A stretch of 64,000 bases of DNA from Candidatus Hecatellales archaeon (GTDB lineage Archaea > Thermoproteota > Bathyarchaeia > Hecatellales > Hecatellaceae). Below, in pieces: positions 1,003-12,878 of this stretch. Every line of letters starts with the position of its first letter. Positions within the stretch are counted from its first letter, which is position 1. The position numbers were made by a program, and so were the translations under genes. Below the pieces are notes generated by a model. It made no database searches. It saw only the letters and a list, made by a program, of their open reading frames with translations, and was not told the DNA's origin. The stretch spans positions 1,258 to 65,257 of the forward strand of contig QMXD01000001.1 in NCBI GenBank assembly GCA_003661965.1, given 5' to 3'.

Positions 1003-2454
1003 ATGAGTTTAGATTTAAAGGTTAAGATTGGTTTAGAAGTTCACTGTCAACTAACAAGCCTAAAAAGTAAGCTTTTTTGCGGATGCTCCTCAAACTACCG
1101 TGGAAAACCTCCAAACACATGTGTTTGTCCTGTTTGTCTAGGTTTACCTGGTGCAATGCCTGTTGTTAACAGGAAGGCAGTTGAAATGGCTTTACTTATT
1201 GCTTTAGCCTTAAACTGTAAAATTGCTAAAACAACATTTTTTGCACGTAAAAACTATTTTTATCCAGACCTACCAAAAAACTTCCAGATTTCCCAGTATG
1301 ATTTGGAGGGTGGGGAACCTTTAGCCTCAAACGGATACGTAACCTTTACAGTAAACAAAACAAGAAAAACCGTTAGAATTAGAAGAATCCATTTGGAGGA
1401 AGACCCTGGAAAACTTGTTCATCCCGGTGGGATTGGTGTTTCACCTTATACGCTTGTGGATTATAATAGGTCTGGTATAGCTTTGGTTGAGATTGTGACT
1501 GAACCTGACTTTGAAAGTCCTGTTGAAGCTAGAAGTTTTCTTCAAAAGTTAAGGTCTATTCTTGAGCATCTTGGAGTTTTTGATGGTAGTCTTGAGGGTG
1601 CTATGCGTTGTGATGCTAACGTTTCTGTTGAGGGTGGGGGAAGAATTGAGATAAAAAACATTTCATCTTTTAAGGATGTTGAAAGAGCGTTAAGCTATGA
1701 GATTATTAGACAAAAAGACCTTATTAAAAAGGGTGTAAAGTTTGGTATGGAAACCAGACATTGGGATGAAACTAAAAGGGTGACGGTAACCCTACGCACC
1801 AAGGAAGAGGAGCAGGATTACAGGTATTTTGTTGAGCCAGACCTATGCCCAATAGTTATTGGTGATGAGCTTATAGAAAAACTAAAAAAAGAGATGCCTG
1901 AGCTTCCAGACGCTAGAAAAGAGAGGTTTATACGTGAATATGGTTTGCCTGAATATAATGCTGAGGTTTTGGTTGGTGAAAGAGCTCTTGCAGACTTTTT
2001 TGAGGAGTGTGTTAAAATCTACGGTAAACCTAAACCTATCGCAAACTGGCTTATGGGGGACTTTCTCCAATGTCTTCACAGCCTAGATGTTTCTGTTAGC
2101 CAATGTAAGGTTAAACCTGAACATTTAGCCGATATGTTGATGCTTATAGATAAAGGTGACATAAGCATAAAAATTGCGAAAAAGGTTTTATGGGAAATGA
2201 TGAAAACAGGTAAAACTGCCTCAGTAGTGGTTGAGGAAAAAGGTTGGCGTAGAATAACAGATGAAAAGTTTCTTTTAGAGGTTATAGGCAAGGTTTTTCA
2301 GGAGAATTCTAAGGCTGTAAAAGATGCTTTGGTGGATGGTAAGGCTATCCACTATCTTGTGGGTAAGGTTATGGAGATAACCAAAGGTATGGCTGACCCT
2401 GAACTTACAAACAAGCTTATACGTGAAAAGTTAGCTGAACTAAAAAATGATTAA
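1003..2454 (+). CDS. gatB: Asp/Glu-tRNA amidotransferase subunit B (GatB)
   Basis: LEVHCQLTSL...CPVCLGLPGAMPVVN motifs. ATG at 1003 lies 15 nt downstream of the gatA stop; the ORF track starts earlier at GTG 988. Confidence 0.85.
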   Translation: MSLDLKVKIGLEVHCQLTSLKSKLFCGCSSNYRGKPPNTCVCPVCLGLPGAMPVVNRKAVEMALLIALALNCKIAKTTFFARKNYFYPDLPKNFQISQYDLEGGEPLASNGYVTFTVNKTRKTVRIRRIHLEEDPGKLVHPGGIGVSPYTLVDYNRSGIALVEIVTEPDFESPVEARSFLQKLRSILEHLGVFDGSLEGAMRCDANVSVEGGGRIEIKNISSFKDVERALSYEIIRQKDLIKKGVKFGMETRHWDETKRVTVTLRTKEEEQDYRYFVEPDLCPIVIGDELIEKLKKEMPELPDARKERFIREYGLPEYNAEVLVGERALADFFEECVKIYGKPKPIANWLMGDFLQCLHSLDVSVSQCKVKPEHLADMLMLIDKGDISIKIAKKVLWEMMKTGKTASVVVEEKGWRRITDEKFLLEVIGKVFQENSKAVKDALVDGKAIHYLVGKVMEITKGMADPELTNKLIREKLAELKND

Positions 2455-3028
2455 AAAAATCTATTTTGCAACCACAAACCAAAACAAGTTTAGGGAAGCT
2501 GAAAAAATTTTTTCTTTTCATGGTTTAAAACTTGAACATCTAAAACTTAAAACCATAGAAATCCAGTCTGAAAGCTTGGAGGAAATAGCCTTAAACAGCC
2601 TAAACCAGGTTTTATCAAAATGTAGGCTTCCAGTTTTTGTTGAGGATTCTGGGCTTTTTATTAAAGCCTTAAACGGTTTTCCCGGACCATATTCCTCCTA
2701 TGTTTTTAAGACTGTTGGTTTTGAGGGGATATTAAGACTGATGAAGGGTGTTAAGGATAGAAACGCCTACTTTCTTTCTGTTGTTGCTTTTGGAAGCCCA
2801 AACCATAAACCAAAAATTTTTGTTGGAAGGGTTTATGGGAGGATAGCTTTAAAGGCTAAAGGTTTAAACGGTTTTGGTTTTGACCCTATCTTTCAACCAG
2901 GAAACCTTAAAAAAACCTTTGGGGAGATGGAGGTTAAAGAAAAAAACAGGTATTCTCATAGGGCTAAAGCCATAAAAAAGCTTGTAGGTTGGCTTAAAAA
3001 AGGAAAATATTTTAACAGTAAACTCTAA
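2447..3028 (+). CDS. Non-canonical purine NTP pyrophosphatase (Ham1/RdgB family)
   Basis: N-terminal ATTNQNKFREAEKIF and FVEDSGLFIKALNGFPGPYSSY motifs. The 8-nt ATGATTAA overlap with the gatB stop suggests an operon. Confidence 0.8.
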   Translation: MIKKIYFATTNQNKFREAEKIFSFHGLKLEHLKLKTIEIQSESLEEIALNSLNQVLSKCRLPVFVEDSGLFIKALNGFPGPYSSYVFKTVGFEGILRLMKGVKDRNAYFLSVVAFGSPNHKPKIFVGRVYGRIALKAKGLNGFGFDPIFQPGNLKKTFGEMEVKEKNRYSHRAKAIKKLVGWLKKGKYFNSKL

Positions 3029-3084
3029 ATGCTTTTTCTCCTATTCAGTTAGGGTTAAACAAAACCTTATGAGTGTAAAAGGGG

Positions 3085-4266
3085 ATGGCAAACCAGCAAA
3101 AAAACGCTTCTCTACTCTTTTTCCTCTACCTTTCAATGTTTATGGCAACCTTTAGTGTTGGAATTTATAATCCGCTTATCCCCCTTTACGCAAAACTTCT
3201 TGGAGCAACCTACATGGATTTAGGGGTTATTGGAACAGTTTTCGCTTTACCCTATGCAATCCTACCAGCCTTTATCGGAAGCCTAACAGACAAACTTGGA
3301 AGAAAACCGTTTTATGTTGGTGGGATTTCCCTCCTAACAGTCATAGCAATCCTATTTATTTTTGCATCAAACGTTAAAGACATAATCCTTATTAGGGTTT
3401 TAAACGGGGTTGCATACTCTTTCCTTTGGCCTGTTGCAGAACCTATGATTGTTGATGTAACATCCATCCATGAAAGAACAAGGGTTTTAGGTAGGTTTAG
3501 CTTTTTTTGGGCTTTAGGTTTTCTACTTAGCCCTTTTTTTGGAGGGTTTATTGTTGAAGGTTTTGGTTTTTATCCTCTTTTTATTGTGGCTATGCTTATA
3601 GGTTTAGCAGCCTCAACAGTAGCCTTCTACGGTTTAATCTATAAACAGGAAGATGAAGCCAGTCACACTAAAAAGGTTTGGATAGAAAATCCCGACAGTG
3701 AAAGCCTAAAAGGATCTGGTGGTCTTTTCCCCTTCTACCTAACAATAGTTGTTTATAGTATTGTTATAGGGATAGTTTTCTCCATTTTTCCTGTTTATGC
3801 AAACAGTTTTAATGTTTCCTCCTTCCAAATAGGAATCCTATTTACCGTTTTTGGTGTTTCAAGAGTTATTGTTTTCCTAAACTCTGAAAACGTCTCAAAA
3901 CTTTTTGGAGAAAAAAACTCTATAATTTTGGCTTTAATCACCCAGATAGCAGCATTAACATTAATGGCTTCAACAAAAAATCTAGCTTCATTCCTCTCCG
4001 CAATGGTTCTTTTAGGGTTGTCGTCAGGAATTATCTCACCAATCACAATATCTATAGCCTCAAAAATCGCCAAAAAAGAAAAAATTGGAGCAACCTTAGG
4101 CTCCATGGAGTCGTTTGTCGGGTTGGGTATGACTGTTGGACCTATTGTCGGTGGAACTTTAGCAGAAAAGGTTAGTATAGAGTCACCCTATATTGTTACA
4201 GGAATTCTCTGCCTTCTCCCATTAGCAGTTTTGGTTAAGGGTTTAGAAAAATCTAAGAAGGGTTAA
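3085..4266 (+). CDS. MFS transporter
   Basis: ~12 predicted TM helices, MFS-like D-R/K-x-G-R loop (LTDKLGRKP), 393 aa. Confidence 0.7.
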   Translation: MANQQKNASLLFFLYLSMFMATFSVGIYNPLIPLYAKLLGATYMDLGVIGTVFALPYAILPAFIGSLTDKLGRKPFYVGGISLLTVIAILFIFASNVKDIILIRVLNGVAYSFLWPVAEPMIVDVTSIHERTRVLGRFSFFWALGFLLSPFFGGFIVEGFGFYPLFIVAMLIGLAASTVAFYGLIYKQEDEASHTKKVWIENPDSESLKGSGGLFPFYLTIVVYSIVIGIVFSIFPVYANSFNVSSFQIGILFTVFGVSRVIVFLNSENVSKLFGEKNSIILALITQIAALTLMASTKNLASFLSAMVLLGLSSGIISPITISIASKIAKKEKIGATLGSMESFVGLGMTVGPIVGGTLAEKVSIESPYIVTGILCLLPLAVLVKGLEKSKKG

Positions 4267-4293
4267 AAACTAATAGATAGTAGGCTTAACGAA

Positions 4294-4572
4294 GTGTTAA
4301 AAGAGATGGTTAATAAACAACAACGTTGTGAAATTTGTGGGGAGGATGTTTACCCCCTACCCTACATATGTAAATATTGTGGGAAAACTTTTTGTGTTGA
4401 ACATAGACTCCCAGAAAAACACAACTGTGAAAGGCTTGCTGAAGCCATAGAAAAAACAAAAAACAGCAAAATTCTAGATTTAACAAGCGAAATAATAGAG
4501 TTTGAGAAAGCTCAAAAAGAAAGGTCAAAAGGGCTTTTAAAAAAGCTAGGCAAAAAGATAAGGTTTAAATAA
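4294..4572 (+). CDS. AN1-type zinc-finger protein
   Basis: CxxC...CxxC...CxxH..H..C spacing (CEICG..CKYCGKTFCVEHRLPEKHNC). Start is GTG 4294 or ATG 4306. Confidence 0.6.
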   Translation: MLKEMVNKQQRCEICGEDVYPLPYICKYCGKTFCVEHRLPEKHNCERLAEAIEKTKNSKILDLTSEIIEFEKAQKERSKGLLKKLGKKIRFK

Positions 4573-4582
4573 GGGTGGATAA

Positions 4583-4780
4583 ATGCCTATCAAAAACTTT
4601 TTCAAAACCTTACTTAAAAAGAAGTCAAACAACAAAAAAACCATGTTTGTATGTCCAAGATGTGGAAGCTTAAAAGTTTATCCCTCAAGCTGGATGAACG
4701 GATGGTTAACCCCAACCCAATACGTATGTGAAAACTGCGGATATAAGGGACCTATCCTCCTAAAACTTGAAAAAGAGTAA
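4583..4780 (+). CDS. Small zinc-ribbon protein
   Basis: CPRCG...CENCG pair, 65 aa. Confidence 0.45.
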   Translation: MPIKNFFKTLLKKKSNNKKTMFVCPRCGSLKVYPSSWMNGWLTPTQYVCENCGYKGPILLKLEKE

Positions 4781-4787
4781 GGGTGGA

Positions 4788-5105
4788 CTATTCAACAGTA
4801 ACTATCAGGTTTCTGTTTTCAGCAAGCATAATAGCAATTTTTCTTCTAGCATTTTCAAGACAACGCCAAAGCGTCCCCCTAGAAATCCCCATCCTACGAG
4901 CAGCTTCTTCTTGGGTTAAACCCTCATAAAATATAAGCCTATAAGCCTCAAACTCGTCGTAGGTCATATAGATAGGTGACCTATCAATTCTTGGGGTTCC
5001 ATTAGGGTTTAAAGGAACAAACTGGATTGTTCTAGGTTTTACGTTTATAATTCTAGGTTTCATAGGTCTACCTGGACCGCTCCACCTACGACGCCAAGTC
5101 CACAT
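4788..5105 (-). CDS. DUF134/UPF0251 family HTH protein (putative regulator of the Nif-like cluster)
   Basis: C-terminal sigma-70 region-4-like HTH (LTQEEAARRMGISRGTLWRCLENARRKIA). This family is classically adjacent to MinD-like 4Fe-4S ATPases and NifX-like genes. The conserved core probably starts at the internal Met (~5063). Confidence 0.6.
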   Translation of the reverse strand: MWTWRRRWSGPGRPMKPRIINVKPRTIQFVPLNPNGTPRIDRSPIYMTYDEFEAYRLIFYEGLTQEEAARRMGISRGTLWRCLENARRKIAIMLAENRNLIVTVE

Positions 5106-5182
5106 GCCAAATCCTACCCCTAAAATAGTTTAACAATCGTCTACCTAACTAAAAAAGTGGATATTCTACAACTCTTTTAAGT

Positions 5183-6052
5183 TTAACTCAAACCAAGAAA
5201 ACTGGTTATTCTACCCCAAACTCTCCTTATCTTTTCTGAGACATCAGAGTTTGGTGCATATTCAACAACAGGTTTTCCGTTGGTTAAAGCCTCAACAACA
5301 ATAGGGTTAAACGGTATTTTTTCAACAGCCTCAACCCCAGCCTCCCTACAAAAACCAACAATTTCCTCTGTTTTTTGCAGGTTTAAATCATACATGTTTA
5401 TAAGAACCATCGCTGGAATCCTAAAAAACCCTGTTAAATCCAAAATTCTTTGTAGGTCATGAAGACCTGAAACAGTAGGCTCTGTAATAACTAATGCAAG
5501 ATTAACCTCGCCAAGAGAAGCGATAACAGGACAACCTATCCCTGGAGGACCATCAACCAAAATAAGCTTTTTATCCTCTTTTAAGGCAAGGTTTTTAGCG
5601 TTATTTTTAACCAAGGTTACAAGCTTACCTGAATTAGACTCAGCAGCCTCAAGTTTTGCATGAACTAAGGGTCCATACCTTGTTCTTGAAACAAAAACAT
5701 ACCCTGAAACCTTCTCTTTTAAGGTTACAGCCTTAACAGGACATACATATGCACATACACCACAACCCTCACATAGGATAGGGTTAACCCTAAAATTTTT
5801 TATCGCATCAAACCTACAATGCTCCTCACATAACCCACATTTAACACATTTAGACTCATCTATTAAGGCAAGTTTTGAGCCTTTAAACTCCTCTTTAAAC
5901 TCAAGTTTTTCAGGTTTTAGGAGTAGATGTAGGTCTGGAGCATCAACATCACAATCAGCAACCACAAGGTTTTTTCCTAGAGAGGTTAGGGACGCAACCA
6001 AAGTTGTTTTTCCAGTTCCACCCTTCCCACTTAAAACAACAACCTGCTTCAT
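5183..6052 (-). CDS. MinD/Mrp-superfamily P-loop ATPase with inserted 2x[4Fe-4S] ferredoxin domain
   Basis: Walker A GKGGTGKTT, two CxxCxxCxxxCP clusters (CVKCGLCEEHC, CEGCGVCAYVCP). 4-nt overlap with the next gene. Confidence 0.8.
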   Translation of the reverse strand: MKQVVVLSGKGGTGKTTLVASLTSLGKNLVVADCDVDAPDLHLLLKPEKLEFKEEFKGSKLALIDESKCVKCGLCEEHCRFDAIKNFRVNPILCEGCGVCAYVCPVKAVTLKEKVSGYVFVSRTRYGPLVHAKLEAAESNSGKLVTLVKNNAKNLALKEDKKLILVDGPPGIGCPVIASLGEVNLALVITEPTVSGLHDLQRILDLTGFFRIPAMVLINMYDLNLQKTEEIVGFCREAGVEAVEKIPFNPIVVEALTNGKPVVEYAPNSDVSEKIRRVWGRITSFLGLS

Positions 6053-6894
6053 TTTCCCATCCTCTCCCTAATAGCCCTAAAAAGACCTGAAAACTTTTCT
6101 TTCCATTCAGGGTTTTCCTCAACCAAAGTTTTTCCTTGCGAATAAAGTTCAGCTATTTTTCGGCTATAGGGGATTTCAAGAAGTATAGGAATTTTTTCTT
6201 TCTCACAATATTTGTAGACATCCTTGTTTCCTATCCCAGCCTTATTAACAACAACACCAAACTTTATCCCCATCTTTTTAACAGTTTCAACCATAAGCCT
6301 TAAATCATATAAGCCAAAAGGTGTAGGTTCCGTGACAAGAATACAGAAGTCGCTTCCCTCAACCGAAGCTATAACAGGACAAGATGTTCCTGGTGGAGAA
6401 TCAACTATCACATTTTTTTCTTTAACAGCCTCCTTTTTCACCTCGTTTATTACTGGTACAGGTCTAGGTTCACCCACACTTAACCTACCAGAAACAAACA
6501 TTAAATTTTTTGAGTAGCCTTTTTCAACAACACCAACCTGTTTTTTATCTTCAGTTATAGCTTTTTTTGGGCAGATAAGTATACATCCTCCACAGTTATG
6601 GCATAACTCATAAAAAACCATAATTTTCCTAGGAACCACAACAATAGCATTATATTCACAAAACTCTGAACATTTTTTACAGAAGTCACAATTTTTTTCG
6701 TTGATTTTTGGGGTTAAAACGTGGACAGGTTTTTTCTCCACGATTTTAGGTTTTATAAATAGATGGCTGTTTGGCTCTTCAACATCACAGTCTAAAAGTT
6801 GGGCGTTATCTATGGATAAAGCCAAATTAACAGACACAAACGTTTTTCCAGTTCCACCCTTTCCACTCGCAACAGAAACAATCATCGTTGACAA
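6049..6894 (-). CDS. MinD/Mrp-superfamily P-loop ATPase with inserted ferredoxin domain (paralog)
   Basis: Walker A GKGGTGKTF, Cys clusters CDFCKKCSEFC / CHNCGGCILICP. Confidence 0.8.
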   Translation of the reverse strand: MSTMIVSVASGKGGTGKTFVSVNLALSIDNAQLLDCDVEEPNSHLFIKPKIVEKKPVHVLTPKINEKNCDFCKKCSEFCEYNAIVVVPRKIMVFYELCHNCGGCILICPKKAITEDKKQVGVVEKGYSKNLMFVSGRLSVGEPRPVPVINEVKKEAVKEKNVIVDSPPGTSCPVIASVEGSDFCILVTEPTPFGLYDLRLMVETVKKMGIKFGVVVNKAGIGNKDVYKYCEKEKIPILLEIPYSRKIAELYSQGKTLVEENPEWKEKFSGLFRAIRERMGK

Positions 6895-6936
6895 TAACTT
6901 TATCCTAAAGAAAAAAATAAAGTTTCCTAAAACTGT

Positions 6937-7386
6937 TTACTCATGTCTGTGCATTCTACAAACGTTTTCATCAGTTGCCATTTGAAGTTTTCCAGCCTGC
7001 CATGCACGGATAGCCTCTCTTACAGTCCCATAAGCACCAACATAAACTTCAACACCAAACCGTTCAAACATACGAACAGCCCTAGGACCAATCCCAGAAC
7101 AAATCATCACATCAACACCATGACTTCTCATTATTTCTGGTGGGAGACCACTACCACCCATATGTTCACTTGCATTTTGAATAACCTCAACCTTACCTGT
7201 TGACAAATCAACTATTGTAAAGGTTGGTGCTCTACCAAAATGTTCACATACCTCATCATCTAAGCCTCTCCAACCTAAGGTTGGAACACAAACCCTTAAA
7301 CCACCCATTCTTTTGGCTTCTTGGCTACGTGTTAACTCTAAAAGCTTTTTTCTCTTAATTTTTTCAAGCTCTTCATCTTCAGCCAT
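6937..7386 (-). CDS. NifX/NifB-like (dinitrogenase FeMo-cofactor-binding domain) protein with N-terminal coiled-coil motif
   Basis: The core (CVPTLGWRGLDDEVCEHFGRAPTFTIVDL...VMICSGIGPRAVRMFERFGVEVY) matches the NifX-NifB fold family. The N-terminus (EDEELEKIKRKKLLELTRSQEAK) matches the cluster-wide coiled-coil motif. ATG at 7386; the ORF track extends to TTG 7407. Confidence 0.7.
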   Translation of the reverse strand: MAEDEELEKIKRKKLLELTRSQEAKRMGGLRVCVPTLGWRGLDDEVCEHFGRAPTFTIVDLSTGKVEVIQNASEHMGGSGLPPEIMRSHGVDVMICSGIGPRAVRMFERFGVEVYVGAYGTVREAIRAWQAGKLQMATDENVCRMHRHE

Positions 7387-7440
7387 TCTAACCACCAAAA
7401 ATAACAAAAATGGTTATGTTGTTTATAGACTTAGATTCTT

Positions 7441-7758
7441 CTACTTTTTAAGTTCTTCAAGCCTTCTTCTTGTATCTTCAAGCTCCCTTTCAAGAGCTTT
7501 TGCCTGCTCTTCCAACATTGCTATCTCATCCTCTCTTGTTAAGGTTGGTGCTCCTGGAAAACTCCATGGTGTTATTGGACCGTAGATTCCTGTCCACCAC
7601 CATCTTGGAAGCCATGGGAACCATCTACAACGCCACCACCAATCCCATGGGAACCAGCTGTAAGCCCAATAGGTATAGTATGGTGTGTATGTGTAGCCGT
7701 AACCTCCGAAAAGGTATGGAAAAATAAACCATCCCCATGGACCTAAGCCAAAAGGCAT
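7441..7758 (-). CDS. Ultra-Trp/Tyr-rich low-complexity protein with C-terminal conserved coiled-coil
   Basis: 105 aa; the first ~70 aa are ~20% Trp (PWGWF, DWWW, RWWW, YTPYYTYW). C-terminus TREDEIAMLEEQAKALERELEDTRRRLEELKK. Strong SD GGAGGTG 6 nt upstream. Lies 54 nt upstream of the NifX-like gene on the same strand. Confidence 0.6.
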   Translation of the reverse strand: MPFGLGPWGWFIFPYLFGGYGYTYTPYYTYWAYSWFPWDWWWRCRWFPWLPRWWWTGIYGPITPWSFPGAPTLTREDEIAMLEEQAKALERELEDTRRRLEELKK

Positions 7759-7795
7759 GTTAGCACCTCCAAGGTTTATGGTCTGAGATGTTTAT

Positions 7796-7822
7796 GTGCA
7801 TTTGCATAAAATATATTTTTCG
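7796..7822. promoter_or_regulatory. Bidirectional promoter: TATA-like box plus palindromic operator GTGCATTTGCAT
   Basis: ATGTGCATTTGCATAAAATATATTTTT at 7794-7820. Sits between the divergent Trp-rich gene (-) and the radical SAM gene (+). The same motif occurs at 9964-9975 and 10578-10589. Confidence 0.55.
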
Positions 7823-7848
7823 CAAAACAATAAAACAGTTAGATGTAA

Positions 7849-8845
7849 AATGGGAGAATGGTCAACAGTATATGGACCTGTACCCTCATGGAGGCTAGGT
7901 TTTTCCCTCGGTATAGACCCTTTAAAACCACCAAAAACATGCACCTTCGACTGTATCTACTGTCAACTAGGTAAAACAGTTAAAAAAGTCTCAAAACCAG
8001 AGGATGTTTATCCCCATGTTTCCACGAGAAAAATTCTTAAAGACTTAGAAAAAACCCTAAAAAAAGTAGACTTAAAAAACGTAGACTATTTAACTTTTTC
8101 AGGGACTGGTGAGCCAACCCTAAACCCAAACCTTGGTGAGGTTGTGGATGAGGTTAAAAGGCTTATTAACGATAAGCCTATAGCAATCTTAACAAACTCA
8201 TCCTTGCTAGATAGGGAAACCGTTAGAAGAAGTCTTAAAAAAATGGATTTAGTTGTTGCAAAACTTGATGCTCCAAACCAGAAACTATTTAAAAAAATAA
8301 ATAGACCCTCTAACGGTATAACTTTAACCTCCATAATTAAAGGCTTAAAAAGTCTGAGAAAAGAATACTCCGGGAGACTTGCAATCCAAATAATGTTTGT
8401 TAAATCAACCATGGGTGAAAAATTAAACACGGAAAAAGAGGTTGTTGAAGGTTTAACAAGGATAATTGAAAAAGTCTCTCCAGATGAAGTTTACATAAAC
8501 ATACCTACAAGACCACCATCAGAAAACCATGTAACTATACCAGAAAACCAAGAAATAGAAAAAATATCTAAAATGTTTGGGGAAAGGCTTAACTGGATAA
8601 AAGTTGTTTCTAGGATGGCTACCAGTAAAACCTGGAAAAAAATGGAAAAAAAGGTTTTAGAGGATTTAGAGAAAAGAATAATGGAAACCTTAAAACGTAG
8701 ACCATGTAACCTTAAAGACCTAACTGAAATTTTTGGGGTCCCAGAAAAAACTTTAAGTCTTCATCTTAACAGTCTAGTGGAGAAAGGAAAAATTTTAGCT
8801 TTAAAATATCAGGGTTTAACCTACTATAAGTTGGCTAATCTTTAA
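7849..8845 (+). CDS. Radical SAM protein with C-terminal winged-helix domain
   Basis: CTFDCIYCQ (CxxxCxxC) after GPVPSWRLGFSLGI. C-terminal wHTH-like LNSLVEKGKILALKYQGLTYYKLA. ATG 7849 is preferred over ORF-track 7796, which overlaps the operator. Confidence 0.7.
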
Positions 8846-9188
8846 CAAGTCCAGCGTTTTTTATTGCTTCAGCAACCGTAATACCAGGTTCAACCTTAAT
8901 CTTTTCAATTTTGTTTTGTTCTAGGAGGGTTGTTGCTCCAGGACCTATCTCACCAGCTAAAACAACGTTAACGTTTGAGTCTGCAAGCATCTTAATAACT
9001 ATAGGTCCAACACCAGACTTATAGTCTAAAGCTGAGTTTCTAAGAACTTTTACATCCTTTATTTTTTTCTCTTCCAAGTCTACTATTGTAAAGGTGTTTG
9101 CTCTACTAAAAACCTCTGAAACAGTATCCTCTAAACCTTTATCACCGTTGGTTGGAACAGCAACCCTAATCTTCTTCAAAAAATTCAC
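8835..9188 (-). CDS. NifX/NifB-like cofactor-binding domain protein
   Basis: KIRVAVPTNGDKGLEDTVSEVFSRANTFTIVDL...VNVVLAGEIGPGA fits the dinitrogenase FeMo-cofactor-binding fold family. 117 aa. Confidence 0.7.
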   Translation of the reverse strand: MNFLKKIRVAVPTNGDKGLEDTVSEVFSRANTFTIVDLEEKKIKDVKVLRNSALDYKSGVGPIVIKMLADSNVNVVLAGEIGPGATTLLEQNKIEKIKVEPGITVAEAIKNAGLVKD

Positions 9189-9204
9189 CTAGAAAAATTT
9201 TTGT

Positions 9205-9735
9205 TTAGGTTTTTTGGGTTTTTGAACGTTCAAGAAGCTTTTTTAACTCATCCATCCTAGCCTTTACACCCTTAATTTCCTCTTCTAAATCCTTCTTATA
9301 AGCCTCCAACGATGCTAACTCCTCTTCTGGTGTCTGTTGGATTGGTGGATAAGTTGGCATTGGTGGAAACATCATTGGAAACATTGAAGGTTGATTTTGC
9401 TGGGTTGTTGAGGTTTTAGGTGAACTTTTTAACTCTTCTATTCTTCTACGGATCTCCTCAATTTGGCTTTCAAGCATTTTTGCCTGCTGCTCTAAAAACT
9501 GTTTTTCCTGCTCCCTTGTTGGTGCCTGTTGGAAAGGATAGGGAAACGTTGACTGTGGAGCTATAGGCTGGGTGGGAGGCTGTGCTGGTTGGGGTATTAA
9601 ACCGCTTTGAATTAGCCATTGGGCTGTTGGTGGGAGACCTGTTGGAGACCTGCCAAGCCATCCTGGTGAATAGCCAAACCTAAGCCATCCAGGTAAACCT
9701 GTTAAGTAATACATTCTCCTCCAACGGTAACCCAA
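9205..9735 (-). CDS. Pro/Gln-rich low-complexity protein with two coiled-coil segments; in-frame continuation of the upstream Trp-rich ORF
   Basis: TREQEKQFLEQQAKMLESQIEEIRRRIEELKS matches the cluster motif. Same reading frame as 9742-9948, separated only by TGA 9742-9744 plus two codons. Confidence 0.55.
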   Translation of the reverse strand: MGYRWRRMYYLTGLPGWLRFGYSPGWLGRSPTGLPPTAQWLIQSGLIPQPAQPPTQPIAPQSTFPYPFQQAPTREQEKQFLEQQAKMLESQIEEIRRRIEELKSSPKTSTTQQNQPSMFPMMFPPMPTYPPIQQTPEEELASLEAYKKDLEEEIKGVKARMDELKKLLERSKTQKT

Positions 9736-9741
9736 ACTTTC

Positions 9742-9948
9742 TCACCACCATCTAGGTGTATAGTATGGTGTGTATGGTAAGCTTCCTGTGAAAATGTATG
9801 GGGCTAAAAACCACCAACACCATCCTCTACCAAACCACCATCCTGGTCTTTGCCATGGTGGTAGCCAGCTCCATGGACCTCTTCCAGGCCATGGTCCTAT
9901 CCATCCTCCACGTCCTCTACCAAACCAACCCCAAGCCATATTTTTCAC
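9742..9948 (-). CDS. Ultra-Trp/Arg/Gly/Pro-rich small protein, possibly the N-domain of a split gene
   Basis: 68 aa, ~20% Trp (GWWFGRGWCWW, PWSWLPPW). Shares YTPYYT with the 7441-7758 paralog. Ends ...RWW-TGA. Confidence 0.5.
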   Translation of the reverse strand: MKNMAWGWFGRGRGGWIGPWPGRGPWSWLPPWQRPGWWFGRGWCWWFLAPYIFTGSLPYTPYYTPRWW

Positions 9949-9963
9949 CTCTAAAAGAATTTG

Positions 9964-9984
9964 TGCATATGCACATATTTAAGT
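9964..9984. promoter_or_regulatory. Promoter/operator: perfect 12-bp palindrome GTGCATATGCAC next to an AT-rich TATA-like box
   Basis: Minus-strand reading CTTAAATATGTGCATATGCAC. Sits 15 nt upstream of the ATG of 9742-9948, followed by SD GAGGTGA. Confidence 0.5.
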
Positions 9985-9985
9985 T

Positions 9986-10558
9986 TTACTCGCCCCTAAG
10001 CTCCTTAAGCCTCCGTTTAATCTCCTCAAGCTGTTGCTGTAAAATCCTCATCTGATTTTCAAGCATCATAATTTCCTGTTCTTTGTTTGGGGAGGGTGGA
10101 GGTGTTGGTGGGGGTGAGGGTGGAGTCCAACCCATACCCCTACCAAAACCCATACCTCTCCCCATACCCATGCCCATACCTCTACCCATTCCTCTTCCCA
10201 TACCAAAACCTGGACCGAAACCTGGAGCAAAAGCTTCTCTAAGTCTTCCAGCCTTATATGCTTCGATAGCCTCTCTTACAGTGCCAAAAGCTCCAGTAAA
10301 AATTTTTACACCTGCGGACGCTAAAACTTGGTAGGAGTTTGGACCTACATTTCCTGTGATAACAGCTTCAACCCCCTCATTAACGACTGTTTGAGCTGCC
10401 TGTATTCCTGCTCCACTTAAGGCTGAGGCGCTTGTGTTTGGTATTGCCTTAAAACTCATTGTGTCTGTGTCTACGATAATAAAGTATGCACATCTACCAA
10501 ACCTTGGGTCTATTTGGGCATCTAAACTTGGAGCAACAGCGGTTACACACACCTTCAT
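9986..10558 (-). CDS. NifX/NifB-like cofactor-binding domain protein with C-terminal GMGR (RGG-like) repeat, Pro-rich linker and conserved coiled-coil
   Basis: N-terminal 105 aa NifX-like (CVTAVAPS...RFGRCAYFIIVD...VEAVITGNVGPNSY). Followed by GFGPGFGMGRGMGRGMGMGMGRGMGFGRGMG, then PPSPPPTPPPSP, then EQEIMMLENQMRILQQQLEEIKRRLKELRGE. Confidence 0.7.
   Translation of the reverse strand: MKVCVTAVAPSLDAQIDPRFGRCAYFIIVDTDTMSFKAIPNTSASALSGAGIQAAQTVVNEGVEAVITGNVGPNSYQVLASAGVKIFTGAFGTVREAIEAYKAGRLREAFAPGFGPGFGMGRGMGRGMGMGMGRGMGFGRGMGWTPPSPPPTPPPSPNKEQEIMMLENQMRILQQQLEEIKRRLKELRGE
10088..10228 (-). repeat. Degenerate tandem ~9-bp coding repeat (CCCATACCY units on plus strand) encoding the GMGR/Pro-rich region
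   Basis: Visible periodic catacccat/catacctct/cccatgccc units on the plus strand. Confidence 0.6.
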
Positions 10559-10577
10559 TTTTCATACCTATGAAAGA

Positions 10578-10600
10578 GTGCATTTGCACAAAATATAAAG
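10578..10600. promoter_or_regulatory. Promoter/operator: GTGCATTTGCAC palindrome plus TATA-like box
   Basis: Minus-strand reading CTTTATATTTTGTGCAAATGCAC. Sits 19 nt upstream of the ATG of 9986-10558. 18/19 identical to the 7794-7820 site. Confidence 0.55.
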
Positions 10601-11252: not shown

Positions 11253-12878
11253 TTAACTTTCCTCCAAATCCTCTAAAGTTTTTTTAGGCCATAGAAGTGT
11301 TTTTGGAAGCCTGTAGGAGCCAAACTTTTCCCTAACCCTTGAAGGCCAATTTTTAGGGTTAAACCCGTGGTTTGCAAGAAAAGCTGTAACCCAACGTGAG
11401 GAGCCAAGCCCTGTACATCCAGTCCATATAGGTCTATTTTTAACCTCATGGATGCTAAAGTTTTTAACAAATTTGTCTTTATGGACAAAACATCCTGCGA
11501 TTTCAAGCCATTCAGTCTTCTTTCTCTCCCCCCTATAGGGTAAATATATTTCGATGTCGAATGCAGCAACGTTTTTGCTTTCGGTTAGGTCTCCTATTTC
11601 ACCCTCCCTCATGTAGAATGGTGTTGCAGCAACAACCCTCCACTCAAGCTCAAGAATATCGTTTACAACCCTTACCAGCTCATTAACAATAGAGTCTCTA
11701 ACCTCAACAACCTGTTCAGGTGTCCCAATATAGACAAGCTCTATCCTTCTAAACTCTTGAAGTCTAGCTAAACCTTCTACACCACCACCCTCCCAACGGT
11801 AGGTCCAACCAGACCTATCATAAAGCTTGATGGGTAAATCTTCAACCCTTAAAGTTTCATGGCTAAAAAAATACCAGAAAGGTTCACATTGGGCAGGTGC
11901 TAAAACATAGTCAGGCTCCTTAATAATATTTTTTAACATATCCTTTGGAACTGTTTTTGTAACCTTAACTGTTTCCTTAAATTCTGTGAAGGCTTTAGGG
12001 TCTCTTGGTGGAGGACAAACATAATACATACCCTCAGGAATCTCCTCCAAATATCCAGGCATCCTTTGCATAACCTCAAGCGGTATAAGTTTTGGAAGCA
12101 TAAAAGGCTGAAAATCAAGCTTTAAAACAACCTCCTCTAAAAGTATGCTTTCAATAGCGTCAAGAAGCTTAGCATAGGGTGTTGTGTAAATCCATTGCCC
12201 CCTACCAGGAAACTCTTTAATCCATCCAAGCTCTAAAGCAAGTTTTGCAGGGTCTTCCTTAAACTTTTGTATTCTGGATTTCCCCTGTTTAACAACAACT
12301 GTTTGAGGTTGTTGGATGGGTTTAGCTTCACCTTTAAACATCTCTTTTACAACTGAGAAAACTCTGTCAGGAACGTTCTTTTTAAGGTCAGCTTCCTCCA
12401 TAGGCTTTAAAAAAACTGTGACAAGGTTTTCCTGTTTAGCTACATCTTGAACATGGGTTAAACTTTTAATTTTTTCTAGGATTTCTTCTGAAGTTTTAAT
12501 TGGAAACTCAAATTTTATTTCTGGTGTTTCAAGTTTTCTAACACCAATTTTAAAGTTTAACCCTAACTCTTCAGCCAAAATTTTTCTAAACCTTAAAACT
12601 GCTGCTGGTGCTCTAAACCTTAACCCTGAAACTATTTTAACCGTTAAACTATTGTTTTCTATTTTCCAGTCAACTATTTTTGCAGCTTCATCAAGGTTTT
12701 CTCTTGGAACATTTTTAGTAAATATTTCCTTGTTTACCTTTTCAACAAGATTTCCGATAACGTTTTTTAGGTTTTCAGCTTCCTTACTCAGAATAAACTT
12801 TGAGGTTGCCTCTATTCTAGCCTCCCTTTTTTCCAAACCTAAACCACCCTTAAACTTTTCTCGGTAGCCTGTAAACAT
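11253..12878 (-). CDS. serS: Seryl-tRNA synthetase, methanogen-type (divergent class II aaRS)
   Basis: 541 aa. Class-II motif-2-like FRRIE and motif-3-like GLGSSRWVTAFLANHG (compare SerRS G.G..R..vA.LEN). Conserved Cys/Glu candidates for the Zn site. The 40-nt overlap with the upstream gene suggests the true start may lie downstream. Confidence 0.55.
   Translation of the reverse strand: MFTGYREKFKGGLGLEKREARIEATSKFILSKEAENLKNVIGNLVEKVNKEIFTKNVPRENLDEAAKIVDWKIENNSLTVKIVSGLRFRAPAAVLRFRKILAEELGLNFKIGVRKLETPEIKFEFPIKTSEEILEKIKSLTHVQDVAKQENLVTVFLKPMEEADLKKNVPDRVFSVVKEMFKGEAKPIQQPQTVVVKQGKSRIQKFKEDPAKLALELGWIKEFPGRGQWIYTTPYAKLLDAIESILLEEVVLKLDFQPFMLPKLIPLEVMQRMPGYLEEIPEGMYYVCPPPRDPKAFTEFKETVKVTKTVPKDMLKNIIKEPDYVLAPAQCEPFWYFFSHETLRVEDLPIKLYDRSGWTYRWEGGGVEGLARLQEFRRIELVYIGTPEQVVEVRDSIVNELVRVVNDILELEWRVVAATPFYMREGEIGDLTESKNVAAFDIEIYLPYRGERKKTEWLEIAGCFVHKDKFVKNFSIHEVKNRPIWTGCTGLGSSRWVTAFLANHGFNPKNWPSRVREKFGSYRLPKTLLWPKKTLEDLEES

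Follow-up and report, generated by a model that had tools for sequence, protein, structure and literature searches.

The 64-kb stretch of DNA analysed here (the window, in whose coordinates all positions are given) comes from a Candidatus Hecatellales archaeon of the class Bathyarchaeia and contains, within 4788-10558, a cluster of ten genes, which we name g1-g10. Three NifX-fold proteins (g4, g7, and g10), two MinD-type Fe-S ATPases (g2 and g3), a DUF134 helix-turn-helix (HTH) protein (g1), and a radical SAM protein (g6) are co-located with three DUF5320 proteins (g5, g8, and g10) and one relative of the DUF5320 family. According to the list of open reading frames (ORFs), nine of the genes are on the minus strand and g6 runs divergently on the plus strand; an initial annotation of this DNA had counted ten minus-strand genes plus a divergent one. 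The analysis suggests, with a confidence slightly short of an even chance, that the product of the locus is an assembly for iron-sulfur storage or trafficking, of the kind represented by the orange protein (ORP) complex and IssA, which would here be split over several polypeptides and assembled through a helical zipper. The storage and movement of iron and sulfide in strict anaerobes are poorly understood, and the biochemistry of IssA is available only from Pyrococcus furiosus.

The helix shared by the proteins of the cluster is the C-terminal half of the Pfam family DUF5320 (PF17253), at profile positions ~60-99. Using a hidden Markov model (HMM) of this 35-residue helix built from g5 homologues, we found four copies in three proteins (residues 71-105 of g5, 73-104 and 137-166 of g8, and 158-189 of g10) with E-values of 1e-14 to 1e-18 in the window search, and the same HMM detected no copy elsewhere in the 64 kb. 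The two g8 helices score 39.4 and 23.5 bits against it, and PF17253 matches g8 with 42.0 bits in two stretches. As read from the sequence, the hydrophobic residues of the g5 helix fall at a/d spacing (I77, L80, A84, L87, L91, T94, L98, and L101), and the a/d pattern of the helix is clean across four heptads. The helix consensuses of the paralogue classes share KEQE.xMLE.Q...L...L..I(K/R)KRLEELKK; the class fused to NifX is Q-rich and has LKEL where the other classes have LEEL. The initial annotation had recognised this motif and its C-terminal placement in g5, g8, and g10 correctly, but its assignment to five proteins was an over-count, since the g4 helix scores 0.1 bits and g9 has no copy. 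The N-terminal helix of g4, ELEKIKRKKLLEL, which had been taken for a further copy, is unrelated and was rejected as such; it gives no Pfam match for DUF5320 and, in the N-terminal alignment, is lineage-specific and kept only in close relatives. Neither g4 nor g9 matches PF17253, and g9 has no Pfam match of any kind, while PF17253 is present in about a third of the g9 homologues. A full-text literature search found nothing on the function of DUF5320/PF17253, and the Pfam family covers neither the Trp motifs of g5 nor the core of g9.

The gene set is conserved as a cassette over many contigs of Thermoproteota and Bathyarchaeia, often beside dtxR and feoAB. Scanning metagenomes with the pattern WLPRWWW confirmed 176 relatives, from which 80 loci were retained, and the ORFs of related loci were annotated with profiles made from the window's proteins. 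A cassette of g9-type, g8-type, g5-type, NifX+DUF5320, and NifX genes recurs in the 80 loci. In its canonical layout a divergent DUF134 gene is followed by the g9-type, g8-type, and g5-type genes, the NifX+DUF5320 gene, and lastly a short NifX gene of the g7 type. The two MinD/ferredoxin ATPase genes, which recur as a pair, and the radical SAM gene lie mostly near the cassette in the relatives, and the Hecatellales lineage (loci L005 and L008) has the same set in a rearranged order. In 59 of the 66 loci that could be evaluated, the gene directly after the g5-type gene is a NifX gene. Furthermore, the 120 best of the more than 6500 homologues of g10 all combine PF02579 with PF17253; the homologues come from Bathyarchaeia, Hecatellales, Nitrososphaeria, Methanocellales, and metagenome-assembled genomes (MAGs) of other Thermoproteota. 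The recurrence of the helix in orthologous clusters, which the initial annotation had named as a check, is thus borne out. This strict co-operonic conservation fits a coupling function, and we infer from the sequences that the helix may join NifX-like domains to partners rich in aromatic residues, Arg, and Gly; the hetero-oligomerisation tag put forward in the initial annotation agrees with these data.

We counted the neighbours of the g5-type gene in loci with a flank of at least 3 kb on both sides of it, and again with at least 6 kb. NifX was found near it in 19/19 loci with the shorter flank and 9/9 with the longer, DUF134 in 16/19 and 8/9, MinD in 12/19 and 6/9, DtxR in 2/19 and 5/9, and FeoB in 2/19 and 3/9. 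Only 7/19 loci have the radical SAM gene at a distance of up to 3 kb from their g5-type gene; homologues of g6 occur in 22 of 85 related loci and in none of the DNA of L008, where g5, g8, and g9 are kept. Over all related loci, DtxR is present in 12, FeoA in 8, FeoB in 7, and a Mo/W-type binding protein in 2, and iron genes are commoner neighbours of the cassette than Mo/W-type binding proteins.

The Trp-rich ORFs of the cluster are genuine genes. Compared with L005, L008, and L015 at 71-84% identity, the ratio of nonsynonymous to synonymous substitution rates (dN/dS) was 0.07-0.11 for g9 and 0.09-0.18 for g5, and the same comparison gave 0.06-0.10 for g10 and 0.17-0.26 for g7; by this measure the Trp proteins and the NifX genes are under equally strong selection. 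Shine-Dalgarno-like motifs precede three of the genes: GGAGGTG at 6 nt from the g5 ATG, GAGGTGA ahead of the g9 ATG at 9939, and GGTGGTGA before g8. There are 77 homologues of g5 and 90 of g9, and an exhaustive profile search of 1.84 billion representatives returned 121 g9-type clusters, all of small proteins. The initial annotation had made its proposal depend on the conservation of the Trp-rich ORFs in related genomes, and they are conserved, under purifying selection. Its figure of ~20% Trp agrees with g9 (21%), but for the 105-residue g5 it applies only within the first 70 residues, the overall content being 14/105, or 13%.

In the window, g9 and g8 share one frame with a single TGA between them. 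At 9733-9747, g9 ends in ...TGG TGG TGA and the TTG start of g8 follows 6 nt on in the same frame, with GGTGGTGA overlapping the stop codon. This junction resembles readthrough but is a tight translational coupling of two genes. A single g9-TGA-g8 readthrough gene was rejected, and g9 and g8 are taken as separate genes because the g8 ATG of L005 is in another frame and L008 carries a TGA TAG double stop.

The Trp segments contain motifs that are invariant position by position. In the g5 family, C44, F47, P48, W49, P51, R52, W55, G57, and Y59 are invariant within RCRWFPWLPRWWWTGIYGP in 26/26 sequences, and in the g9 family 16 columns are invariant within GPWPGRGP.S.LPPWQRPGW..GRG.C, also over 26 sequences. 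Both motifs possess a single conserved Cys. The N-terminal motif of g8, GYRWRRMYYLTGLPGWLRFGY, occurs in 42 ORFs of related loci, and the Tyr/Pro/Gly stretches flanking the Trp motifs vary in length. The Trp segments are therefore not mere compositional bias or loose low complexity, as the initial annotation had described them, and its comparison with phase-separating scaffolds of eukaryotes was overstated, being weakened by the invariant, motif-like character of these segments. The modules also occur in natural fusions: P0188 unites the g8 motif, the g5 motif (Wm), and a helix, and the g9 core is joined to the g5 motif in P0283, P0284, P0297, and P0305. That the g9 core and the g5 Trp motif are homologous was considered and rejected, as hhalign pairs only the helix carried by some g9 relatives. 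In addition, P0188 (L012 710-1150) and P0338 have an insert with three Cys residues, C-x7-C-x13/14-CP.FAPR, that separates the Trp motif or g9 core from the remainder of the protein and may be a metal site.

IssA of P. furiosus (SipA, PF2025) is an iron-sulfur storage protein that consists of a NifX-like (IPR003731) domain and a tail and forms thioferrate nanoparticles of 20-300 nm (Vaccaro et al. 2017, PMC5524996). The tail of 70 residues, with 11 Pro, 7 cationic, 14 aromatic, 15 Gly, and 1 Cys residues and an isoelectric point (pI) of 10.7, was proposed to wrap the anionic thioferrate, and Trp, Gly, and Arg are its conserved residues across the clade (PMC5524996). The cluster appears to have a similar combination, spread over separate proteins, of a NifX-like domain with an unstructured, Pro-rich, cationic, aromatic, and Gly-rich segment with a single Cys. 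Both g9 (65 residues with 10 Pro, 6 cationic, 22 aromatic, 12 Gly, and 1 Cys, and a pI of 10.9) and the tail of g10 come close to the published composition; counted as 49 residues, the g10 tail is acid-free and one-third Gly (16 Gly, 4 Arg, 11 Pro, and only 5 aromatic residues), has a predicted local distance difference test score (pLDDT) of ~40, and is followed by the helix. The g10 domain is close to MTH1175, which has been described as IssA-type (PMC5524996). When SipA/IssA is induced in Thermococcales, so are the second NifX-like gene next to it, CbiA-type Fe-S ATPases, and feoB (PMC6981617, PMC4463584), and these co-regulated partners, with the ATPases of the CbiA/MinD type, form the same parts list as the cassette. 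In M. voltae, two IssA-like genes that lie four loci apart are upregulated on pyrite (PMC8516115). Two primer-derived IssA peptides (MKIAIPTNGGG and PVEEAIKVAT) match g7 best and with the right spacing, although two such short fragments are weak evidence.

There are also clear differences from IssA. The Trp-rich segments are mostly separate polypeptides here (g5, g8, and g9), the g10 tail ends in a DUF5320 helix that has not been described for IssA, and the Trp segments have invariant motifs, whereas the IssA tail is conserved in 'chemical character'. A further variant of the tail was observed in four related loci (L012 1147-1629, L080 8366-8848, L068 5802-6332, and L087 532-1059), where the NifX protein after the g5-type gene has a Gly/Arg tail ending in a zinc-ribbon-like C.CP.CG...H..G.PC....CPRCG..M.R that replaces the DUF5320 helix.

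In the case of the Desulfovibrio ORP complex (orp3-orp4-orp5 and orp7-orp8-orp9), the components are a pair of MinD-like ATPases (Orp3/4) that have two 4Fe-4S motifs apiece, together with the orange protein (Orp8), a small Fe-S protein, and MrpORP (Fievet 2011; Pardoux 2019, PMC6345978; PMC8359166). The complex is anaerobe-specific and polarly localised, and an archaeal origin has been suggested (PMC6345978, PMC8359166). Compared by architecture only, g2 and g3 are paralogous MinD-like ATPases with two 4Fe-4S motifs each, as are Orp3 and Orp4. The orange protein is the best structural match of the g10 domain, to which g10 adds the tail and the helix, and g4 resembles the Cys/His Di-Nase domain of MrpORP, its best, partial NCBIfam match being to this part of the protein (NF041136, 54.8 bits against a cut-off of 450). 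That score is the best for NF041136 in the cluster, which contains no Mrp/NBP35-Di-Nase fusion. Nor does the cluster contain a gene for a sigma-54/OrpR regulator; a DUF134 HTH gene is there instead, the host is archaeal, and the ORP papers cited here make no mention of DUF5320 or Trp-rich partners.

The likeness to Nif systems, by which the initial annotation had called the cluster Nif-like, holds at the level of the domain superfamily: the Nitro_FeMo-Co (PF02579) fold is common to NifX, NafY, NifB, and the cluster proteins, and a radical SAM gene is nearby. It does not extend to the equivalog models, whose scores are far below their cut-offs, namely 20.7 bits (g7) against 112 for nifX (TIGR02663), and 19.9 (g4) and 19.1 (g7) bits against 343.65 for nifB (TIGR01290), which g6 does not match at all. 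No nif structural genes were found near the cluster, and judged from these scores it is not a Nif system. The architecture had also been put forward as undescribed, which is too strong because DUF5320 is in Pfam, the ORP parts list has been published, and IssA is known (PMC5524996). What appears to be new is the explicit link of DUF5320 to IssA/ORP-type clusters, the invariant single-Cys Trp motifs, and the layout of split tails with a shared zipper.

We propose that in such an assembly the NifX-fold domains of g4, g7, and g10 would hold inorganic Fe-S species. Acid-free segments rich in Arg, Gly, and aromatic residues form the tail of g10, the N-terminal portions of g5 and of g8, and the whole of g9, and two of them have a single invariant Cys; they could enclose an anionic Fe-S polymer or cluster and offset its charge, in the way proposed for the IssA tail. 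The four-heptad DUF5320 helix of g5, g8 (two copies), and g10 would zip the chains into hetero-oligomers, thereby bringing the tails and the NifX domains together without covalent fusion, and g8 with its two helices might act as a bivalent cross-linker through which the assembly grows into a particle. The MinD/ferredoxin ATPases g2 and g3 would load or unload the clusters using ATP, and DUF134 (g1) would regulate the operon. A wider claim, which we hold possible but doubtful, is that DUF5320 serves as the assembly module for a store of Fe-S mineral that is widespread in archaea, and in which the function of IssA is split over polypeptides, g8 cross-links, and a membrane-less particle is filled and emptied by the MinD-type ATPases. 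If so, DUF5320, DUF134, and the ORP-type ATPases would have a common function, and the building of thioferrate-type particles outside the Thermococcales would be explained.

Through the locus and its more than 80 relatives, three families of 'unknown function' (the MinD-ferredoxin ATPases, DUF134, and DUF5320) are linked both with the parts list of IssA/ORP and with feoAB/dtxR. If a split IssA is the right interpretation, a Pfam family with thousands of members would gain a function, and the Fe-S mineral particles of Bathyarchaeia and related archaea would become accessible to genetics. The short invariant Trp motifs with their single Cys, and the shared zipper helix, are open to mutation and make the proposal testable.

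Several points weigh against an iron-sulfur storage or trafficking assembly. A published survey scored 0/3 Bathyarchaeota genomes as IssA-positive (PMC8351635). The operational criteria for the IssA clade are a pI of at least 9, a Cys count below 5, and a Gly share of 20% or more over the C-terminal 40 residues (Vaccaro 2017); g10 has a pI of 9.30 and 2 Cys, but its C-terminus is taken up by the helix, so that a single one of these 40 residues is Gly (2.5%). The likeness of g9 and the g10 tail to the IssA tail is one of published composition only. A g9 core fused to a NifX domain was found neither among the 90 word-index matches nor among the 121 clusters of the exhaustive profile search, which have no PF02579. 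The window holds no homologue of feo or dtxR. The physiological role of the ORP complex itself is unsettled, and is putatively one in cell division (PMC6345978). Finally, the Trp motifs are invariant position by position, for which a defined partner, be it a protein or a membrane, is no worse an explanation than non-specific electrostatic wrapping of a mineral.

This last point argues for an alternative, which we consider unlikely, that the cluster encodes an ORP-type complex with a mainly positional or cell-division role, in which the MinD-like ATPases would localise the complex, and g5, g8, and g9 would be anchored at the membrane interface by their Trp/Arg-rich motifs, with the NifX-fold subunits tethered to these anchors through the DUF5320 helices. 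Trp/Arg/Pro-rich stretches such as RWFPWLPRWWW are reminiscent of interfacially active peptides. The cluster also matches the ORP parts list in its two paralogous MinD-like Fe-S ATPases and its orange-protein-like NifX domain, and ORP components are located at the cell pole and have been linked to division (PMC6345978), although this link is merely 'putative' in the literature. However, the Trp, DUF5320, and NifX proteins of the cluster have no transmembrane segment or signal peptide, the tail of g10 is Gly/Arg/Met-rich and not Trp-rich, and the neighbours in the relatives are genes of iron uptake and regulation, not of division. These neighbours also speak against the handling of a Mo/W (or Mo-Cu) sulfide cofactor, a role implied by the 'Nif-like cofactor' title of the initial annotation, with clusters of the thiomolybdate or thiotungstate type carried on the NifX-fold proteins and a Mo/W cofactor matured by the radical SAM protein, since DtxR, FeoA, and FeoB are far commoner near the cassette than Mo/W transport genes; a molybdate/tungstate-type binding protein is near it in the two loci mentioned above. 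In favour of such a role, the protein that g10 matches best in the PDB, the orange protein, is one that carries a Mo-Cu sulfide cluster (PMC6345978), and the top NCBIfam match of g6 is the tungsten cofactor oxidoreductase radical SAM maturase. The latter is far under its cut-off (W_rSAM_matur, 50 bits against 380), nifX and nifB reach ~20 bits against 112 and 344, no genes of nitrogenase or Mo/W enzymes adjoin the cluster, and L008 is without the radical SAM gene, all of which makes this explanation quite improbable.

The Arg-Gly segments of the DUF5320 proteins and the N-terminus of the DUF134 protein might instead be RGG-like binders of RNA, DNA, or G-quadruplexes, the small proteins being regulators and not a scaffold. 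A survey of G-quadruplex-binding motifs in archaea flagged a DUF134 and a DUF5320 protein of Methanosarcina mazei with an RG-rich motif, a claim that rested on the motif match alone (PMC7565180), and g1 has an HTH domain. However, neither g5 nor g9 has RGG repeats in its Trp motif, and strict operonic coupling to genes of NifX-fold proteins and Fe-S ATPases is unexpected for general nucleic-acid binders, so we regard this explanation as very improbable. Radical SAM enzymes that cross-link Trp residues are known, and the radical SAM gene g6, which has homologues in 22 related loci, lies divergently next to g5. The small Trp-rich proteins might accordingly be substrates of g6 of the kind found among ribosomally synthesised and post-translationally modified peptides, with its winged HTH (wHTH) domain as the peptide-recognition element. 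Such a modification is hardly to be expected because g6 has no Cys for a SPASM/twitch auxiliary cluster and because L008 keeps g5, g8, and g9 without the radical SAM gene, which is moreover close to the g5-type gene in only 7/19 of the flank-controlled loci. Conservation extends over both halves of the small proteins, which is not what a leader/core layout would show, and the cluster has no protease or exporter gene.

The coordinates and domain content of the cluster genes are collected in the table below. Pfam domain calls were judged by the curated gathering cut-offs (27 bits for DUF134, 26.3 bits for PF02579, and 27 bits for PF17253), and all assignments in the cluster pass. The initial annotation's three NifX-fold proteins, two MinD-like ATPases with ferredoxin inserts, DUF134 protein, and radical SAM-wHTH protein are thereby upheld at the positions it gave, and the three NifX-fold proteins exceed the HMM threshold, which it had named as a check. 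The same DNA is present in the ENA metagenome contig ERZ1742239 NODE_260; the genes of the GenBank MAG are RLG92785-RLG92792, and the Trp-rich genes are annotated there as 'hypothetical protein'.

Table. Genes and sub-features of the cluster at 4788-10558 of the window
Feature	Position	Strand	Content and scores
g1	4788-5105	-	DUF134, sigma-70 region-4-like HTH; PF02001 2.1e-20, 73.5 bits
g2	5183-6052	-	MinD/ParA-type P-loop ATPase (KGGTGKT), two inserted 4Fe-4S ferredoxin motifs
g3	6049-6894	-	g2 paralogue: MinD/ParA-type ATPase, two 4Fe-4S motifs
g4	6937-7386	-	NifX-fold, Cys/His motifs (VCEHFGRAP ... CRMHRHE); PF02579 4.7e-25, 88.2 bits
g5	7441-7758	-	Trp-motif protein, 105 aa: aromatic N-terminal part, C-terminal DUF5320 helix; PF17253 28.7 bits
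g5 DUF5320 helix	7444-7548	-	residues 71-105; motif HMM 59.4 bits
g5 invariant Trp motif	7567-7638	-	residues 41-64, WWRCRWFPWLPRWWWTGIYGPITP, one conserved Cys44
g6	7850-8845	+	divergent radical SAM, C-terminal ArsR-like wHTH; PF04055 3.9e-15, HTH_5 8e-6
g7	8835-9188	-	short NifX-fold protein, Cys-free, tail-less; PF02579 3.4e-17, 63.0 bits
g8	9205-9735	-	N-terminal motif GYRWRRMYYLTGLPGWLRFGYSPGW, Pro/Gln-rich linkers, two DUF5320-type helices
g8 DUF5320-type helices	9424-9519, 9238-9327	-	
g9	9742-9939	-	65-aa Trp/Gly/Arg/Pro protein, no acidic residues, pI 10.9, one Cys, no helix
g10	9986-10558	-	NifX-fold, residues 1-112; PF02579 6e-25, 87.8 bits; PF17253 7.9e-14, 53.1 bits
g10 disordered tail	10088-10234	-	residues 113-157
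g10 DUF5320 helix	9992-10087	-	residues 158-189

The first gene, g1, is presumed from its HTH domain to be a local transcription regulator; its N-terminus is Trp/Arg-rich (MWTWRRRWSGPGRP). The ATPases g2 and g3 are 32% identical, and both match CbiA/ParA-type Pfam families and, twice, Fer4; g2, which has CbiA and ParA (NUBPL) matches, is named '(4Fe-4S)-binding protein' in GenBank. The closest solved structures are PH0822 and TM1816 for g4, TM1290 and MTH1175 for g7, and for g10 the Desulfovibrio gigas orange protein 2WFB (7.8e-22, 81 bits, residues 2-112), followed by TM1290 and MTH1175; the PDB matches of the three NifX-fold proteins are 2WFB, 1RDU, 1EO1, 2YX6, and 1O13. The radical SAM protein g6, whose 331-residue start was taken from the public gene call, has CxxxCxxC and no SPASM domain or auxiliary Cys, three of its five Cys residues being those of CxxxCxxC. 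None of the NCBIfam models comes near its cut-off with g6, and its closest PDB entries are viperin-like at merely 1e-5. A NifB-like or SPASM-type assignment of g6 is not supported, as there is no nifB match and no extra Cys cluster and the PDB matches are viperin-like.

In the AlphaFold2 model of g10, the domain (residues 1-112) has a pLDDT above 90, the tail (113-155) ~40, and a single long helix (159-188) 83-92. The confidence of the g5 monomer model is confined to the C-terminal helix (75-104), and the model is uninformative for the Trp motif. The g10 tail consists of a Gly/Arg/Met/Phe part followed by a Pro-rich part, and the GMGRGMG repeat, which the initial annotation had listed as an item of its own, lies inside g10 at residues ~117-143. 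The DNA of the tail (10092-10232) is a tandem repeat with periods of 12, 24, and 36 nt, whose plus strand is rich in C and whose coding strand is rich in G, and the repeat number of the GMGRGMG/Pro-rich tract differs among the window, L005, and L008.

A search of the window for RNA genes, tRNAs, and Rfam families found none. In 18 related loci a metallo-beta-lactamase-fold protein of ~280 residues is encoded near the cassette (for example, L011 10458-11291; besides L011, the loci include L012, L016, L018, L020, L023, L030, L044, L055, L074, L076, L080, L082-L084, L090, and L092), and the window has no homologue of it. In L009/L010, the FeoB adjoining the cassette (2087-4669, 860 residues) contains an intein, with Pfam Intein_splicing ahead of the FeoB domains. 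Directly downstream of the DUF134 gene in the window, 4294-4780 (+) encodes a zf-AN1 protein of 92 residues and a 65-residue CPRCG...CENCG zinc-ribbon ORF, whose position is kept in L005 and L008. On the other side, the cluster is adjoined by a seryl-tRNA synthetase gene at 11253-12878 (-), which encodes a 541-residue form with a tRNA_bind_4 N-terminal domain (PF18490 + tRNA-synt_2b, as publicly called for locus L001), a form that we take to be the rare 'methanogen-type' enzyme.

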